From Scenedesmus sp. PABB004 (lineage: Eukaryota), in the NCBI GenBank assembly GCA_014905635.1, contig JABVCE010000014.1, positions 806,001-870,000 on the forward strand: a DNA stretch of 64,000 bases, read 5' to 3'. The notes below the pieces were generated by a model that was not told where the DNA came from, made no database searches, and saw only the letters and a program-made list of their open reading frames with translations. The translations under genes were made by a program, and so were the position numbers. The first letter of the stretch is position 1; each line of letters begins with the position of its first letter. Shown piece after piece: positions 1,593-38,599 of the stretch.

Positions 1593-4500
1593 TCAGAACA
1601 CACCGCTGCGCATGAGCAGCGTGCCCGCGGCCGCCATGACCGCGCTCAGCGCCGCCGCGGTGAGCTGCTGGCCCTCGACCGTCGCCGCGCCCTTGCGCCC
1701 CACCTCGGCCGCGAGCTGCGCGGTCAGGCCGTCGGGCTCGACGCCGTCGCGCCGCATCGCGCGCAGCAGCTCGAGCGCGCGGTCGTACAGGCCCGCGCGG
1801 TCCGCCGCCGCGACGAGCGCGTTGTAGAGGTGCACGCTCGGGGCGCGCCCCGCCGCCGCGGCGCGCGCGCGCACGCGCAGCGCCGCGCCCGCGTCGCCGG
1901 CGAGCGAGTGCGCGGCGACGAGCCCGCAGAATGCGTAGTCGCCGGGCGCCAGCCCCGCGCCCTCCATCGCGCGCACGAGCGCCTCGGCGCGCGCGGGGTC
2001 GCCGGACAGGCCCGCCACGCCGACCATCGCCTCATACGTCGCGCCGTCGGCGGCGCCCGCGCCGCGCGCGCGCGCGAACAGCGCCTCCGCGACGCCCAGC
2101 TGCCCCGCCTTGCCCGCGGCGGCGATGGCCGTGGTGTACATGCCCGCCGTGGGGCGCACACCCAGCGACGCGCCGCGCGCGAGCGCGCCGACCGCCTCGC
2201 GCCACTTGCCGGCGCGCTCGTACGCCGACATCAGCGCCGCCACGACGCCCTCGTTCACCAGGCCGCCGCCGCCGCCGCCCTGCCGCGGCGCCGGCGCGGC
2301 GCCGCCCTCGGGCGCCGCCGCCGCTGCCTGCTGCTGCTGCCGCGGCCGCTGCTGCGGCCGCTGCTGCTGCTGCGCCTGCTGCGGCTGCTGCACCGCCGCC
2401 GCAGGGTTTTGGTGGAACTGCTGCTGCTGCAGCATGAGCAGCTGCAGATCGACGCTGGCCGCGAGCTGCTGCTGCAGCGCCATCTGCGACAGCTGCTGCG
2501 CGAGCATGTTGCTGCTCACGCTCGCGGCCGCCGCGGCGGCCTCGCCGCCGGGCGCCGGCGAGTCGCTGCGCACGCTGCCCGCGCCGCTGGCGGCGGAGCT
2601 GCCGATGCTGGCCGCGCCCGCCGGCAGCTGCAGGTCCAGCCCGTGCAGCTGGCTCGCGCTGGTCCACAGCGCCGAGCTGCTGCCGCTGCTGCCGCTGCTG
2701 CCGCTGCTGCCACTGCTGCTGCTGCTGTCGCTGCCGCCGTCGGCCGCCGCGCTGGCGGCCGAGCTGGCGGCCGACGCAGCGCTGCCGCTGCTGCTGCTGC
2801 GGCCGCGCGGCGCGGGCTCGCCGCCCTCGGGGCGCTGGATGAGCCCCTGGCGCCCCGGGCCCGTCGCCGCCTGCCAGCCCCACACCCCCGGCACGACCTC
2901 CGCGTCCAGCCCGCTGGCGGGGCCGGCAAAGCCGAGCCCGCCAGCCGCCGCGGCGGCCGCTGCCGCCTGCCAGGGCAGCGCGCCCTGGCCGGGCGCCGCG
3001 CCCGCGAGCGCCTGCTGCTCCAGCGCCGAGAAGAGCGCCTCCGCGCGCGCCCACTCGCCGCACTCGCCGAGGCACTTGAGCAGCGCGGCGTAGGTGTAGG
3101 CGTTCGGCGACACGCCGCCCCACGCCGCGCTCTGCATGAGCCCCAGCATCTCGAGCGCGCGGTCCCACTGCGCCGCGTTGCCGAGCGCCGTGAGCAGCGC
3201 GGTGTAGGTGCGCACGTTGGGGCGCACGCCGGTGGAGAGCATCCACTGCACGACCGCCTCGGCGCGCTGCCACTGCGCCGCCGCGGCGAGCGCGGTGATG
3301 AGCGCGGTGCAGCTCACGACGTCGGGCTTGATCCCCGCGCCGCACATGTCCTCAAACAGCCCGACCGCCTGCGTCCAGTCGCCGCCCGCGGCGCACGCCG
3401 ACATCGCCGCCGCAAACGCGTGCCCCGTCGGCGACACGCCCGCGGCCGCCATGTCGGCCCAGATGTCGAGCGCCGCCGCCCAACGCCCGCCCTCCGCCGC
3501 CGCGCGCATCGCCGCCGTGTAGGCGTGCACCGTCGGCGCGAGCTTGCTGCCGCGCGGCGCCGCGCGCATCGCAGTATACATGCCCAGCGCGCGCTCGGTG
3601 AGGCCCTTGCGCGAGCACACCTGGCGGGCGCGCGCGCGGGCGGCGAGCGGGCGGGCGGTGAGCGGGCCGGCGCGCGGGCGCGCGGGCGGGCGGGCGGGCG
3701 CGCCGCAAGCCGGGGGCGAGCCAGCGGCGGCGCGGCGGCGGCGGCGCGGCGGCTGCGGCGCGGCGGCGGCGCGGCCGCGGGTGCGGCCGGCCACGCACCT
3801 CAATGTAGGTGATGCAGAGCCGGCAGTCGAGCGGGCACGCGGCCGCCTGTGCGTCCTCCCACACGCCGAGCGCGGTGTCGAGCAGGCCCGCGCCGAGCGC
3901 GGCGCGCATCGCCGCGGTGTAGGTGTAGACCGTCGGCGACAGCGCCGCGCCGCCGAGGCTCGCGGGCGCCTTCATCCACTGATACACCTGCAGCGCCGTC
4001 AGCGCCTGCCCGTGCTCCGAGCACACGCGGATGAGCTGCGCGACGCGGGCGCGGGCGGCGGCGCGCGGCGTGTGAGGCGGCGGCGCGGCGCCGGCGGCGG
4101 CGCGGGCTGCGCCGGGCTGCGCGGGCCACCCCGTGGCGGCGCGCGGGCGCCCTCGCTCACCGTGGTGCAGAGCCGGTCGTCGAGCTGGTGCCCGCTGTCC
4201 TGCAGCCACTGCGACAGCACGAGCGCGCGGCGCCAGGTCGCCTTGCTGCGGCCGAGCGTGCCGACGAGCTTGTCCAGCTCCCGGTTGTCCAGGCTGCCGG
4301 GCGGGACGCTGCCCGCCGGCGGCAGCACCACCGGCGCGCCGGCGTCCGCCAGGCGCAGCAGCTCGTCTGGCAGCGCATGGCCGCCGGCCGCCGGCGAGGC
4401 GCCGCTGCCGGCGCCGCTGGCGGCGCCGCGCGTGCTCGCCGCATGCGTGGCGGCGCCCGGGTGGCTGACTACGGGCAGCCCGCTGGGCGCCGGGAGGCGG

Positions 4501-32771: not shown

Positions 32772-34106
32772 ATGTGGGGCGACGTCTCGCTGGAGCTGCT
32801 GCGCGGGCGGCTCCACGACTTTGCCGTCGAGCGCTCCTGGCAGCAGTTCCACTCGCCGCGCAACCTCCTCGTGAGCGCCCGGGAACGGCAGGCGGCCGCA
32901 GCGGAGGCGCGCCGGTGGCAGCAGCGGCGGCGCGCCGGCAGCAGCAGTGCGCCGGCGGCAGCAACGCGCAACCGCCGCCGCGCCGCGCCGCGCTGGCGCG
33001 CAGCCGCCTTCACCGCGGCCCCGCCCGGCCGCCGCGGCCCCGCCGCCGCAGCTCGCGCTCGTCGGCGAGGTGGGGGAGCTGTCGGAGCTCTTCCAGTGGC
33101 GCGGCGAGGTCGGGCCTGGGCTCCCCGGCTTCAGCGACCGCGAGCGCGGGCGCGTGGGCGAGGAGCTGGCCGACGTGCTGCTCTACCTGCTGCGCCTCGC
33201 CGACGTGTGCGGCATCGACCTCGGCGCCGCCGCGCTCGCCAAGCTGGCGACAAACGCGGCAAAGTACCCGTCCGAGCAGTGCCGCGGCCGCGCCGACAAG
33301 TACACGGCGTACGCCCAGCAGCCCCGCGGCGACGCGCGCGGCGCGGCCGCGGCGGCCGCGGCGCCGCCGGGCGGCGGCGTGGGCGTGGTGCTGAGCCAGC
33401 TCGCGGCGCTCGCGCGCACCGACCTGGGCGCGGCGGTCGAGCTGCTCGCGGCGCACCCCTCGGCGGCGGCCTCGATCGTGGCCGCCATCAGCGCGGACGC
33501 GCCGCCGCCACCGCTCGGCCAGGCGGCTGCGGCCGCGGCGCCGGCGGCGGCGGCGGTGGCGCCGCCGGCGCCGGCGGCGGACGCGCTGCTCCTGGCCATG
33601 CTCGGTGGCGGCGGCGGCGGCGCAGGCCAGCAGGCCGGCGCGCCGGCCGCCGCGCCCCGCGGCGGTGCCGGCCCGGCGGCCGCGGCGGCCGAGCTCGGGG
33701 CGCCGCCACGCAGGTGGAGGGCCTGACGCCGGCGCAGTCCGCCGCGCTGGAGCAGCTGGCGGCGGCCGGCGGCTCCCTCGCGGCGCAGAGCCCGCCCGTG
33801 GTCGCGGCGCTGTGCTCGGCACTGGGCATCGGCCAGGCCGGGCTGCAGAGCCTCCTCGCCGGCAAGCAGCAGCCGCAGCCAAAGCGGGGCCGGCCGGCGG
33901 GCAGCGGCGGCGGCGGCGGGAGCGGGAGCGGGGGCGGGAGCGCGGGCGGGGGCGGGGCGGGCGCCGGCGCGCCGCCGGCCAAGCGTCGGCCTGATGAGGT
34001 GGAGCGGCCGGACGGCGCCGGGGCTGCCGCGCCGCCCGCGGGCGCGGCGGCGGGCGCGGCGGCGGCTTTGCCGGGCGCGCCGGGTGGCGCTGGGGGGGTG
34101 CAGTAG
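32772..34106 (+). CDS. DCTPP1: dCTP pyrophosphatase 1 (MazG-like NTP pyrophosphohydrolase) with Ala/Gly-rich C-terminal extension
   Basis: FAVERSWQQFHSPRNLL|LALVGEVGELSELFQWRGE...VGEELADVLLYLLRLADVCGIDLG...KLATNAAKYP. The 3' end is uncertain: stop at 33726 as read, or 34106 if a frame change occurs near 33700. Confidence 0.9.
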   Translation: MWGDVSLELLRGRLHDFAVERSWQQFHSPRNLLVSARERQAAAAEARRWQQRRRAGSSSAPAAATRNRRRAAPRWRAAAFTAAPPGRRGPAAAARARRRGGGAVGALPVARRGRAWAPRLQRPRARARGRGAGRRAALPAAPRRRVRHRPRRRRARQAGDKRGKVPVRAVPRPRRQVHGVRPAAPRRRARRGRGGRGAAGRRRGRGAEPARGARAHRPGRGGRAARGAPLGGGLDRGRHQRGRAAATARPGGCGRGAGGGGGGAAGAGGGRAAPGHARWRRRRRRPAGRRAGRRAPRRCRPGGRGGRARGAATQVEGLTPAQSAALEQLAAAGGSLAAQSPPVVAALCSALGIGQAGLQSLLAGKQQPQPKRGRPAGSGGGGGSGSGGGSAGGGGAGAGAPPAKRRPDEVERPDGAGAAAPPAGAAAGAAAALPGAPGGAGGVQ

Positions 34107-34638
34107 TGGGAGCGGCGCGCGCGCGGGGCGTGGTGGGTCTGCTCTCAGCCCGGCTGCGTGGACTCTCACTTTCTTCCCAACTGCTCGCTTGGGCGGGCGG
34201 CTGCGCATGGACGCGCACGCCGCCGGCACGATTGATTGATTGGAACCCTGGTGCTTCGTTTGTGTTCTGCGTGCGGGGCGGTGACGCTGTGTGCTGTGTG
34301 TCGGAGCTGGCTGGCTGCCGGCATGCGTGTCGGTGCGCTGGCTGCTGGCGTGCGCCAGGAGGGAAGGAACCGGCGATGAGCACACCCGGCGGCGGCGCCG
34401 CCGGCTGGCTGCCCGCCGGCGCCGCCGCCTTGAATCCGCCTGGATTTGCTTGCGATCGCACAGGAGCTGAGTTCGTCCGCACGAGCACGGCGCGCCACGA
34501 GGGGGGGGGGGGGGGGTGAGCGCGCTGAGCGGGGTGGGGCGGGGGACGCTGAGCGTGCTTCGCGCCCGGCTGAGCGGGGATGGGGCGCCGGGGGACGCGC
34601 GCGCCGCCGCCGCGGTTACGCCCCTGCGCCCGACATGC

Positions 34639-34953
34639 TCAGTGGCGCGCCTTGAGCAGCGCCAGCCCCCGCGCGCCCAGCTCCGCCTCCGCCGTCTGCC
34701 GCTCTGCGCGCAGCAGGGCCTGCAGCCGCTCCCGGCGCGCCTGCAGCGCCGCCGCCGCGTGGGCCTGCGCCGCCAGCTCTGCAGCCTCCGCCGGCCTGCC
34801 CGTCGTGGTCGGCGGCGGGCCGCGCGCGTGCCAGGCGGCCACGGCGCCGCCGCGCGCGAGCGAGCTCGCGTGTGCTGCTGCGGCCTCGCGCGCCGCGTTG
34901 CCCCGCAAGAGCCGGGCGATGTTGACGGGCTCCATCGTGGCAGAGTAATTCAT
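34639..34953 (-). CDS. CFAP141: CFAP141/C1orf189-like small (104 aa) axonemal protein, single exon
   Basis: MNYSATMEPVNIARLL...VAAWH...ARRERLQALLRAERQTAEAELGARGLALLKARH*. Size and C-terminal R..L..L...E......EL...G.A pattern match the family as recalled. Confidence 0.6.
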   Translation of the reverse strand: MNYSATMEPVNIARLLRGNAAREAAAAHASSLARGGAVAAWHARGPPPTTTGRPAEAAELAAQAHAAAALQARRERLQALLRAERQTAEAELGARGLALLKARH

Positions 34954-35167
34954 GCGAATGCAGGCGGCGCGGCTGCTTTGACCGCTGTGACCACCGCCTT
35001 GACCGCGCGCCGGCGCGCAAACCCTGCAGCCTCGCCGGCCTCCCTTGCCCTGCGCGTCAGGCGGCCGGCGGGCTGCCTCCCGCGCGAGCTGCCTCCCGCC
35101 CGGGCCGTGCAGCCGGGCGCAGGCGCGGCCCGGCCCGCGCGCGCGCAGCAGCGGCGGCCGCAGGGGC

Positions 35168-35549
35168 ATGAGCGCCGTTCGTGCCCTGGCCCCGCGCATG
35201 GCGAGCAGCTTTGGCAGCAAGCTTGGCGCCTGGGCTAGCCGAGCGGGCGGGAAGGCATGCGGCGGGCACGCGGCCGCGCCGCCGCGGCAGCCGACGCTCG
35301 CCGGCGACGCGAAGCAGGGGCTTGTCGACGTCGCCGAGGAGGCGGCCGACGGCGTTGAAGTGGTCCCCGAAGGTGCGCAGGGGTCGCTGGGGCTGCTGCG
35401 GCGCGCACGGGCGTCCGCACTGGGCGCGCTGGGCGCAGCACGTGCGCCCCAGCGCGGGCGCCGCCCGTGCGCGCCGCCGCGCAGGCAAGCGGCTGGCGCT
35501 GTGTGCCGCCGCGACGGCCGCAATGCTGGCGGTCATCACCGCGCTGTGA
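35168..35549 (+). CDS. Possible small tail-anchored protein, head-to-head with the CFAP141-like gene
   Basis: MSAVRALAPRMASSFGSKLGAW...DVAEEAADGVEVVPE|GKRLALCAAATAAMLAVITAL* using a GT-AG intron; hydrophobic C-terminus. Confidence 0.4.
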
Positions 35550-36362
35550 GGGCGCTCGCTCGGCGCGTCGGGTGTGCCGTAACCGCAGCCTGCGCTCCGA
35601 ACGGTTGCCCTCGTGTCTGCACCCGCCGCATGCCCCTGTTCAAGCGACTGCCGCCCGGCTGATGTGCACGCATGCGCCGACTCAACCCGCGTGGCCAGAC
35701 CCGCCGCCGTGACTGCAGACCATGTGCCGCCGACCATGCCGCCGTCCCCTCAGCCCCCAGCTGGTGTGTCACTGTTAGTTGCGCTTGCGTGTCAATGGTT
35801 TGTGCGAGCCTGTGCGTTTGTGTGTCTGTGCGTGCGTGCCTGTGTGCGCCGCCGCCCAACCAGAGTGCCCGCGTCCGCGCCGCCGCCGCGCGACGCGCGC
35901 GCCCGTGCCGCGCCTGCCGCCAGCCGACCGCCCGGCCACCGGCCGCCGCCCAGCAGCGCTGCTGCAATCTCAACTAGAGCCATTCTTCCTCATCTGCCGC
36001 GCTCGCAATAGCACAACCCAATCGGGCAGCCGCCGCGGCGCGAGCGCCGTGCAGGGGGCGCCCCGGGGCGGTAATCGTTCACGCAGCAGTCCCCGCGCCA
36101 GTGTGCGCGGAGGGAGGGAGGTTTTCCTGCCAGCGAGGAAGAGAAGTTCGTTTGAGGTGCAGGCCGGCGCGCCGCGCCGCCGCAGGCATGTGCAAAAAAC
36201 AGGGAGACAAGGCAGGCACATTCAAAAACGCACGGCCGGGGACCGAGACGCACGCCGCCGAGCAAGAGCAGCCGCCGACAGAGGGGCCTCCACACGCGGC
36301 CACGCCCCCCCCCCTCCACCCACACACGCACACACGCCCCACTCCCCACCCTCGCCCGCGTC

Positions 36363-38599
36363 TCACACCGCCAGCGCGATGGGCGCGTCAAGCAGCGAGT
36401 CCGGCAGGCACAGCGCGGCACCGCCGCCGACGCGCTGGCCGCCGGCGCCGCCGGCGGCGAGCGCGGCCGGGGGCGCGTAGACGCGCGCGGCGGCCGCGGC
36501 GCGGCACTTGCCGGGCGCGTGAATGAGGTTGCAGCACAGGCAGCGCGACCAGCACTCGCCCATGTGCGCGCGCCGGAGGCAGCGCACGCACTTGGCCCTG
36601 GGCGGGCACTTGCCGGTGTGCAGCCCGCCGCAGCGCGGGCAGGGCTCGGTCAGGCCGCCGCCGGCGGCGGCGTAGCTCGACGCAAGCGCCGCGCCGGCGG
36701 GGTCGCCCGCGGCGGCCGCAGCCGCGGCCGCGACCGCGGCCGCGAGCGAGCGCACGGGCACGCCGCCGCTGCTGGACGTGCTGCCGGCGCTGCCCGCGCT
36801 CGTCGCGCCCGGCTCGCCCGGCGCGTACAGCCGGCCCGCGGCCGCAGCCGCGAGCGCGGCGCAGCCCGGCGCGGTCACGCTGCCGCCGGCACTGCTCAGG
36901 CCGCCGCTGCCGGCGTGCAGCGACGAGGCCGCGGTGCTGTTGTAGCTGCTGAAGCTCGGCAGCGGGCCGCCGAGGCTGCCGTCGCCGAGGCTGCTCGCGC
37001 CCGCGGGCGGCGCGCCCAGGCCCGCGCACGCGTCGCTGCCGGGGTCGCTGCCGCTGCCGTCGCTGGGCTCGTGGCAGGAGCCGCTGAAGCTCCAGCCGGG
37101 CGCGCCGCAGGCGCCGGGCCCGGTGCCGCGCGGCGTGGCCGCCGCCAGCGCCAGGCCAGTGCCCGTGCCCGCGGCCGCCGCCGTGAGCCACAGGCTCGCG
37201 GCGGCGGAGCTTGCCGCAGCCGCGGCCGCGGCCGCGGCCGCGCCGTCGGGGCGCGGGCGGCCGCCCGCCGCGCGCGGCGGCGCGTCGGCGCGCCCGGGCG
37301 TCACGACCGGCGACGGCGCGTCGGCCTCGCCGCGCAGCGCGCCCGCTGCGCGCGGGAGGCCAGGGACGATGCACTCGATGCTGACCTGGCGGGCGTGCGC
37401 GCCGGCGGCGCAGCTGGCTCCGGCGAGGCCGTGTTCAATCTCAGCCAGCAGTCCGAGCGGCAGCAGGCCGGCGGCCTTGGCGCTGTGCAGCTCCTCCGCC
37501 TGCGCCACGCGCGCCGCGGCAAAGGGGCTGCTGGCGTCGAGGTCGGCGGCGCCGGCCAGACCAAACAGGCCGCCCGGGCTGCCCAGCCCGAACGCGAGCG
37601 GCGAGCCGGCCGCCGCGGGCGGCGACGGCGGCGCGCCGCCGCCGCGCCCCGGCGAGGGAATGGCGCCGGGCGGGCTGCCGCGCGCGGCGCCGCCGCGCGG
37701 CTCGGGGCTGAGCCTGCCGCCCGCAGCCTGCAGGCCACAGATGAAGCCGGCGGCCGACTGCGGTGCACCGCCGGCGCCGCTGCCGCTGCTCAGGCGCGGC
37801 TCGGGGCTGACGCCCCTGCTGCAGGGCCGGCTCGCGAGGCTGTGGGCGCCGCCGCGCTGCGCCGCGAGGCCGGCCAGCCCCCTGGACAGGCTGGGCGGTG
37901 AGCCGGGCGCGGCGCCGGCGCTGGCAGGCCGCGGGCCGCCCAGCGGGCTCGCGGTGCGCGGGGCTGGTCCCGCGCCTCCGCTGCTGCCGCCGGCGGTGCA
38001 CGGGCCGTCCTTTTTGTGCCTGCGGGGCGTGCGGCGCCGGCGCGCGGCCGCGTGAGCGGCCTGCACTGCTGTGGGGTTTGATCCGTGCGGCACGCGGCGC
38101 GCGGACCCACCCCGCGGCGGCGCCGGATGCCAGGCAGTCGAGCACGGCGCCGCCAAGGTCGACGCCGCACGCGTCCGCCAAGCGCGCCAGCTGCAGCAGC
38201 GCGTCGCCCAGCTCCTGCGCGAGCTGCTGTTTCTCGCTGGCGCTGAAGCTGGTGGCGCCGGCCTCGCCGCGCCACTGGAAGGCCTGCGCGAGCGCGCCGA
38301 CCTGCCCCACCTGCGCGGCGTGGCGGCGGCGGCAGTGATGGCCTGCCGCGCCGGCTGCACAGCCAGCCTGATCACGGCGTCTGTGCCGGCCGCGCCCCGC
38401 GCTGCGCGGCGCGCCGGGCGCAGCTGCCGGGCAGCAGTCGGCGCACCAGCGAGAGCAGCACGCTCGCGGCCGCTGCGCGCCCCTTATGAGCTCCCGTGTC
38501 GGCCTCCGCACACTCCGGTGAGGCGCGCGAGACTCGCGGATGCCCGAGCGCCCGCAGCGCGGCAGCTGCTCCCGGACCCGCATCGAGGTCACTTGCCAT
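36363..38599 (-). CDS. Degenerate MazG/DCTPP1-like domain fused to a long Ser/Pro/Gly-rich linker and three CCHC-type zinc knuckles, 3 exons
   Basis: Exons 38599-38447, 38310-~38111 and 38019-36363. N-terminal SVLLSL|VGQVGALAQAFQWRGE...QLAQELGDALLQLARLADACGVDLG. C-terminal CPRCGGLHTGKC, CVRCLRRAHMGEC and CLCCNLIHAPGKC. Confidence 0.75.

Follow-up and report, generated by a model that had tools for sequence, protein, structure and literature searches.

Relation to described systems

DCTPP1 (RS21-C6, XTP3TPA) is usually treated as a soluble, unattached homotetramer with a house-cleaning role, helices 2 and 3 forming both its dimer and its tetramer, and the textbook two-domain case of a MazG protein is that of E. 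coli. A second described system is that of the CCHC proteins (PF00098), among them the retroviral nucleocapsid, LIN28 and CNBP/ZCCHC, and the canonical spacing of the zf-CCHC unit is CX2CX4HX4C. Two genes of a 64-kb window from the green alga Scenedesmus sp. PABB004 (contig JABVCE010000014.1, positions 806,001 to 870,000; "the window" refers to this whole stretch, and coordinates are counted from its first nucleotide) are compared here with these systems: gene 1, a canonical DCTPP1 gene on the plus strand, and gene 2 (HT031_004490), a minus-strand gene that appears to encode a degenerate DCTPP1-like module joined through a long disordered region to a putative triple zinc knuckle. Homologous sequences are designated by P-numbers, P0001 being the gene 2 protein.

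In relation to DCTPP1, the gene 2 protein shares helices 2 and 3 with their hydrophobic core, the tryptophan of the FQW motif, the ExxD motif and the predicted fold, but differs in the absence of the ExxE glutamate pair, the WxQFHxPRN motif, Tyr102 and the K..N..KYP motif, as well as in being joined to a disordered region and a zinc module. A further parallel is offered by tandem DCTPP1 proteins. A HMMER search with P0001 against 1.84 billion representatives yielded 402 proteins at E <=1e-3, the best 150 of which were examined; many of the MazG matches are two-domain DCTPP1 proteins, and one of the two halves is degenerate, with loss of the ExxE/ExxD ligands, in the tandem proteins of Ectocarpus (P0114), Hydra vulgaris (P0020) and Clytia hemisphaerica (P0026) and in P0011, P0013, P0014 and P0019. 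The first ExxE motif has become xVGAL in P0013 (VQVGAL, in its N-terminal half) and in P0114 (SHVGAL). As in the gene 1/gene 2 pair, a degenerate MazG-type module thus coexists with an intact one in these proteins; however, the live and dead halves share a single polypeptide there, with KYP usually retained in the dead half, whereas PABB004 has one gene for each module and the dead module is fused to zinc knuckles. A limited literature search found no paper on half-dead tandem DCTPP1 proteins. With the CCHC proteins, gene 2 has in common three closely spaced Cys-X2-Cys-Xn-His-Xn-Cys units that are rich in basic and aromatic residues, but it differs from them in spacing and has no Pfam or structural match, the weak leads pointing to LIN-28 and to Gag-type knuckles.

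Gene 2 as a probable single coding unit

A published table lists the genome of Scenedesmus sp. PABB004 at 39.8 Mb, 78.5% guanine plus cytosine (GC) and 7,092 genes (PMC12571836). The GC content is 76-83% across the whole window, and open reading frames (ORFs) of hundreds of codons occur in all six of its frames. Since a GC content of about 78% leaves all six frames open, ORF length is worthless as coding evidence here, and coding regions were instead recognized by GC by codon position and by the periodicity of GC at third codon positions (GC3). The latter ranges from 0.94 to 0.97 in all exons examined except the first exon of gene 2.

Gene 2 corresponds to the NCBI model HT031_004490, which encodes a protein of 669 aa and matches the large minus-strand exon at 100%. 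All of its parts lie on the minus strand. Exon 1 as annotated (38447..38599; 153 nt, 51 aa; GC by codon position 0.82/0.67/0.71) encodes a degenerate helix-1 remnant that ends in ASVLLSL and is followed by a 136-nt intron in phase 0 (38311..38446; CTG|GTGCGC...GCGCAG|GTG). Exon 2 (38111..38310; 200 nt; 0.82/0.54/0.955) encodes the DCTPP1-like helices 2 and 3 and the start of helix 4. It is separated by a 91-nt intron in phase 2 (38020..38110; GG|GTGGGT...CCGCAG|G) from exon 3 (36363..38019; 1657 nt including the stop; 0.77/0.77/0.94), which encodes a 459-aa linker and the zinc module with a short tail behind it. In both introns GC by codon position is flat at about 0.80-0.82 (0.81/0.80/0.80 in the second). 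The junctions 38447/38310 and 38111/38019 proposed in the initial annotation proved to be in-frame GT/AG sites, and the joined exons (38599-38447, 38310-38111, 38019-36363) translate to P0001 letter for letter.

The distribution of start codons ties these exons to one another. Methionine occurs in P0001 only at residues 1 and 604, the latter inside knuckle 2. Followed upstream as far as the next stop, the exon 3 frame contains no ATG, nor does exon 2, leaving exon 1 with the sole ATG from which the spliced product could be read. As exon 3 has no usable ATG of its own and exon 2, at 200 nt, would shift the frame of exon 3 if skipped, the knuckle exon needs the MazG-like exon for in-frame translation. 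No further coding-like periodicity was detected in about 1.8 kb upstream of exon 2 (38315 to ~40100). Judging by splice frame, ATG distribution and GC3, the MazG-like and zinc-knuckle exons almost certainly form one coding sequence, in agreement with the earlier proposal that they belong together, and we infer from the sequence itself that gene 2 is a real chimeric gene. The model is least secure at exon 1, and with it at the precise start of the protein, because this exon shows no GC3 signal and retains only 2 of 10 conserved columns of the DCTPP1 family; its annotation may be wrong, or the exon may be a recent recruit of non-coding origin.

A DCTPP1-like module with lost catalytic residues

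Exon 2 of gene 2, which reads VGQVGALAQAFQW...QELGDALLQL, is 52% identical to the core of gene 1 (BLASTP, E 6e-22) and matches the solved structures of human and mouse DCTPP1 with E-values of 1.3e-8 to 2e-7 (phmmer against PDB; 7mu5, E 1.3e-8; 2oie, E 1.1e-7). In an AlphaFold2 model of the whole protein, the predicted local distance difference test (pLDDT) is 73-95 over residues ~31-120, with helices at 28-65, 75-99 and 103-121; the alignment used had 31 rows, including 25 DCTPP1 relatives, from which the predicted fold is partly inherited. The remainder of the protein is mostly below a pLDDT of 50, apart from a helix at 283-300. Foldseek searches with the module returned only DCTPP1/RS21-C6 among the top listed matches (through rank 20), with probabilities of 0.96-1.0 and E-values of 8e-3 or weaker, none reaching 1e-3. 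These matches identify exon 2 as a genuine homologue of DCTPP1, and the module is predicted to adopt the all-alpha MazG fold, which bears out the initial annotation in placing gene 2, with its GQVGAL...QELGD reading, on the same scaffold as gene 1.

The module was compared residue by residue with 126 canonical DCTPP1 sequences, chosen by a regular expression demanding ExxE, ExxD and KY[PS], so that these columns are invariant by construction. Gene 2 retains 27 of the 50 columns with at least 80% conservation, including the hydrophobic core of helices 2 and 3, the FQW tryptophan (W64) and ExxD (E84, D87). The seven residues of the helix-1 motif are all lost, as is the final YP, and the substitutions include E54Q, E57A, E60Q, E83Q, Y91Q, K110C, N114G and K117A. 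Two of the four metal ligands remain, as GEVGEL has become GQVGAL (E to Q and E to A) while ELGD is retained; LLYL has become LLQL with the loss of Tyr102, and K..N..KYP is absent. The earlier observation that gene 2 has lost both ExxE glutamates along with the N-terminal WxQFHxPRN and the C-terminal KYP is therefore upheld by the alignment.

The pocket of human DCTPP1 has been described as comprising H38, F41, W47, F50, H51, W73, D98, I101, Y102 and Y129, with W73 supplied by the adjacent monomer and D98 contacting the deoxyribose hydroxyl (PMC13291643). Only W73 and D98, equivalent to W64 and D87 of gene 2, are identical in the module (2 of 10 pocket residues, the alignment of helix 1 being uncertain), and I101 is replaced by leucine. 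As an enzyme homologue without catalytic residues, the module has the sequence hallmark of a pseudoenzyme. For MazG of Mycobacterium tuberculosis, mutants of the four Mg ligands are reported to be inactive, yet dimeric and with an unchanged circular dichroism spectrum (PMC10014863). Because two of the four ligands and most of the pocket are lost in gene 2 and such MazG mutants stay dimeric, the gene 2 module is very probably catalytically dead and could still assemble.

Zinc module and linker

The triple CCHC module occupies residues 578-623 of the gene 2 protein (46 residues; 36504..36641, minus strand) and comprises the units CX2CX3HX3C, CX2CX4HX3C and CX2CX3HX4C, with the sequences CPRCGGLHTGKC, CVRCLRRAHMGEC and CLCCNLIHAPGKC. 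Their spacings (X3/X3, X4/X3 and X3/X4) all differ from the canonical 4/4. All 12 Cys and His residues, together with several flanking residues, are invariant in the six of six homologues that carry the module. Of the six occurrences of the CCHC pattern in a six-frame translation of the whole window, three form the gene 2 cluster; the only other places are a TGC-rich repeat at 2687-2730 (plus strand), which reads CCRCCRCCHCCCCC, and one site at 35207.

Profile and structure searches gave little beyond this pattern. No Pfam CCHC family matched the 551-aa translation of exon 3 at E <=1, and at E <=10 only zf-CCCH_7 (E 1.7) and, on the homologue P0002, zf-CCHC_5 (E 3.9) appeared. The AlphaFold2 model of the module has a mean pLDDT of 61; Foldseek against PDB found nothing at E <=1e-3, the best match being the LIN-28 zinc-finger domain (E 3.2), a VIA wide search gave no Z >=2, and an ESM Atlas search returned nothing above thresholds, with sub-threshold leads only. 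The three zinc knuckles of the initial annotation therefore stand as far as the Cys/His pattern and its invariant ligands are concerned, but the Pfam zf-CCHC models are not matched, and the term "zinc knuckle" is valid for this sequence as a Cys/His pattern only. The linker, previously described as about 480 aa and Ser/Pro-rich, was measured at 459 aa and is instead rich in alanine and glycine (A 25.5%, G 19%, S 12.9%, P 11.1%); it is predicted to be disordered.

Distribution of the two modules

Among the best 150 of the 402 HMMER matches, the triple CCHC module was identified in six proteins (P0001, P0002, P0003, P0006, P0010 and P0012), and the two modules were combined only in P0001. Residues 40-125, used as query in a word-index search restricted to proteins of 367-1171 aa, likewise returned only P0001 itself among 3523 candidates. 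Within these searches the architecture is confined to gene 2, and a limited literature search found no description of a dead DCTPP1 joined to zinc knuckles, in line with the initial annotation. Scans of metagenome contigs with a sequence alignment and with P0003 found no relative.

The zinc-module proteins of Sphaeropleales (P0002 of Scenedesmus sp. NREL 46B-D3, P0003, P0006, P0010 and P0012) have in common with gene 2 a CPRCGGLHxGKC...CxRCYRKAHLGECWxRCxxCNLVHAPGKC module, an SLWLTAA island and a low-complexity body, and with their 12 invariant Cys and His residues they represent a real, small, green-algal family. P0003, P0006, P0010 and P0012 are JGI/IMG and Logan records, three or four of which are ORF calls on short contigs that could miss upstream exons, and the absence of a MazG part appears solid only for P0002, if anywhere. 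It is possible that the JGI model of P0002 skips a MazG-like second exon, or that this species has lost one. Residues 1-22 of P0002 (...VSAVLSLV) resemble the end of gene 2 exon 1 (...ASVLLSL|V; 38447-38470), a likeness that raises this possibility but could be due to chance.

Age, constraint and origin of the module

The similarity between genes 1 and 2 at the DNA level is restricted to the exon, at 72.6% over 201 nt, and the differences are distributed as 19/18/20 over the three codon positions. Identical residues share a codon in 23 of 36 cases, compared with 23.9 +/- 2.6 expected at full synonymous saturation under local codon usage, while protein identity in the codon comparison is still 55%. 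As synonymous sites look saturated, the two copies appear to be old, yet they have retained this protein identity. Columns conserved in the family are kept preferentially, 25 of 37 being identical to gene 1 compared with 11 of 28 variable columns, a difference of marginal significance (Fisher p 0.027). The ratio of nonsynonymous to synonymous divergence (dN/dS) by the NG86 method was rejected as a selection test, because both copies have a GC3 of about 96%, dS is compressed and synonymous identity is at the saturation expectation.

Neutral decay was simulated from gene 1 to 53% identity, in a crude model that assumes an equilibrium GC of 0.78. The frame stayed open in 52% of the runs, so the intact ORF of exon 2 is uninformative by itself; a GC3 of at least 0.955 was kept in 7 of 2000 runs. 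The initial annotation had named neutral evolution of the MazG part, as a pseudogene fragment, as an outcome that would count against its reading. Saturated synonymous sites, 55% protein identity, the keeping of conserved columns and the rarity of so high a GC3 in the simulation together argue against neutrality, no single test being strong, and the module does not appear to be a neutrally decaying pseudogene.

The origin of the module is less clear than its homology. In a quick tree (275 rows, 68 columns) gene 2 grouped with P0125 with a Shimodaira-Hasegawa-like approximate likelihood ratio test (SH-aLRT) support of 86, and in a careful tree (61 rows, 66 columns) gene 2, P0125 and P0032 formed a polytomy with very long branches. 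The pairwise identities are too close to decide between the two (32/60 to P0125, 34/62 to gene 1). As the trees disagree and the identities are similar, neither a local duplicate of gene 1 nor an orthologue of P0125 was established, and the module may be a local duplicate or may belong to an older paralogue lineage; a recent local duplication in particular is not supported, given the saturation of synonymous sites and trees in which the copy does not stand next to gene 1. P0125/P0265 (JGI/IMG and Logan records) carries a degenerate module ...QDLSAALLQLVRIADACGVDLGRAALDTLTAPAAPQ with LLQL for LLYL and without KYP; in the alignment its end coincides with that of gene 2 exon 2. From the protein alone, it would seem to be an unspliced reading of an intron-containing gene, and P0125 may be a relative of the gene 2 module. 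P0032 is a stand-alone ORF with a degenerate DCTPP1-like module.

The canonical DCTPP1 of gene 1

Gene 1 lies entirely on the plus strand. Its exon 1 (32772..32870; GC by codon position 0.73/0.39/0.97) encodes helix 1 with the WQQFHSPRN motif and translates to MWGDVSLELLRGRLHDFAVERSWQQFHSPRNLL (...ERSWQQFHSPRNLL); DCTPP1 of Klebsormidium matches 32778-32921 (tblastn). Exon 2 (33052..33555, the 3' end being approximate), recognized by Pfam and a GC3 of 0.96, encodes the catalytic core with GEVGEL, FQW, EELAD, LLYL and KYP, followed by an Ala-rich extension. It translates to LALVGEVGELSELFQWRGE...GEELADVLLYLLRLADVCGIDLG...NAAKYP and includes LALVGEVGEL and GEELAD, with a GC by codon position of 0.81/0.47/0.96 in the core. 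The MazG metal ligands noted earlier (GEVGEL, EELAD) are present, and the Pfam MazG-like family is matched above its cutoff (E 1.9e-7, 31.6 bits versus 27). Identity to algal DCTPP1 proteins is 74-76%, the annotated protein of gene 1 not appearing among the matches, and all DCTPP1 marks tested (profile match, four ligands, WxQFHxPRN, FQW, LLYL and KYP) were found, by which gene 1 is a canonical DCTPP1.

The reading frame switches near 33556-33713, where several in-frame GT..AG candidates occur. The probable last exon (33714..34106, with a candidate acceptor CGCAG|GTG at 33713), recognized by the GC3 phase switch and its ORF, encodes a low-complexity tail ending in a TAG stop and matched no Pfam family. 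This tail carries the basic patches KRGRP, judged by eye to be AT-hook-like, and PPAKRRP. Most canonical DCTPP1 proteins retrieved by the searches measure 120-200 aa, and gene 1 would be longer through its Ala-rich extension and probable tail.

Possible function and alternative explanations

The explanation that we favor, with confidence somewhat short of even, is that gene 2 encodes a real chimeric protein in which a pseudo-DCTPP1 hairpin serves as an assembly module, the disordered region as a tether and the zinc cluster as a nucleic-acid-binding part. Its body would have come from the green-algal zinc-module family, with a diverged helix 2-helix 3 hairpin of DCTPP1 added in front. The module would be unable to hydrolyse deoxynucleoside triphosphates (dNTPs), and the hairpin may survive for assembly, as the DCTPP1 tetramer is built from these helices and its sites span protomers. 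Such assembly could confer multivalent RNA or DNA binding on the zinc-knuckle protein, nucleic-acid binding being suggested by the CCHC pattern, and the module could possibly form mixed assemblies with the active DCTPP1 of gene 1, at a distance of 2.3 kb.

A number of points weigh against this explanation. Oligomerization and nucleic-acid binding would both be carried over from family knowledge, the NCBI model may be purely predicted, and the codon-bias signature is absent from exon 1 (GC3 0.71, versus 0.94-0.96 in exons 2 and 3). Exon 2 falls below the Pfam cutoffs for MazG (PF03819; E 0.0096, 16.6 bits versus 22) and MazG-like (PF12643; 15.6 bits versus 27), with E 0.29 for the whole protein. 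At face value, the NG86 estimates between the copies (dN 0.35, dS 0.43) look relaxed; the Fisher test and the decay model carry the limits given with them, and the branch of the module in the careful tree measures 3.98, as compared with 0.099 for gene 1. The fusion is moreover a single-species observation, no MazG-like part having been identified in the five other zinc-module homologues, including the JGI-annotated P0002, and it could be a young, unselected chimera.

Several of these points would fit an artefact of the gene model or a functionless young chimera, in which the relic of an old DCTPP1 duplicate was joined to the knuckle exon by a gene predictor or by leaky splicing and nothing was selected. 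The restriction of the architecture to one species in the searches run, the missing periodicity of exon 1, the very long branch, the even spread of differences over codon positions and the open frame in about half of the neutral-decay runs are all consistent with this. However, exon 3 lacks its own start codon, and nothing coding-like lies upstream as far as ~40100; exon 2 has a GC3 of 0.955 and a position-2 GC of 0.54 as in true exons, its fold-core columns are preferentially kept, and protein identity remains at 55% despite saturated synonymous sites. We therefore consider this explanation unlikely, although far from negligible. Another proposal, from the initial annotation, which we hold to be improbable though well worth keeping in view, is that the dead module enters mixed oligomers with the DCTPP1 of gene 1, either tethering dNTP sanitation to RNA or DNA or damping the enzyme through half-dead dimers. 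It is favored by active sites that cross protomers, Trp73 coming from the adjacent monomer (PMC13291643), together with the retention in gene 2 of W64 and the helix 2-3 core, by the recurrence of half-dead tandem chains (Ectocarpus, Hydra, Clytia and others), which shows that half-dead pairs are viable, and by the position of the two genes within 2.3 kb. Yet another gene lies between them, the interfaces have long been free to diverge if synonymous saturation and the failure of the trees to pair the module with gene 1 are taken as a guide, and the zinc-module homologues of other algae seem to function without a MazG part. A complex prediction for gene 1 exon 2 (89 aa, without exon 1) and gene 2 residues 1-125 scored 0.27 against a mark of 0.34 and speaks neither for nor against.

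A more specific version, in which the dead protomer is a dedicated partner of gene 1 and mixed tetramers bearing the knuckles and the AT-hook-like tail place modified-dCTP sanitation on nucleic acid or chromatin, appears quite doubtful. The active enzyme of gene 1 may itself carry a nucleic-acid-binding or nuclear-targeting tail. Such a partnership, if real, would spread over two genes the half-dead tandem arrangement of DCTPP1 that has appeared repeatedly in brown algae, cnidarians and other eukaryotes. A role as a nucleotide sensor, with the module binding dCTP, modified dCTP or another nucleotide without hydrolysis and gating the zinc-knuckle part, could draw on the retained ExxD (E84, D87) and W64, but the loss of 8 of 10 pocket residues, of two metal ligands and of K..N..KYP on the phosphate side would leave little of a site per protomer, and we regard such a role as very improbable.

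Should the favored chimera be real, it would be the first case found of a dead DCTPP1 protomer on a putative nucleic-acid-binding module and a clean example of a new gene formed through fusion of part of an enzyme with an unrelated protein, with a practical weight that is limited for now, as it is seen in one species. Together with the half-dead tandem proteins, it suggests that asymmetric DCTPP1 assemblies may be a recurrent, unexplored theme, and such half-dead assemblies could couple the control of nucleotide pools to RNA or DNA.

The interval between the two genes

Gene 2 had been described in the initial annotation as convergent with gene 1 and facing it. The opposite strands and the distance of about 2.3 kb hold, but at least one minus-strand gene lies in between. 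The last exon of this small gene was located by GC3 periodicity at 34641..34935 on the minus strand, with a possible further part at ~35290-35540, and shows a weak match to the cilia- and flagella-associated CFAP141 (E 0.0018, 18.6 bits versus a cutoff of 27).

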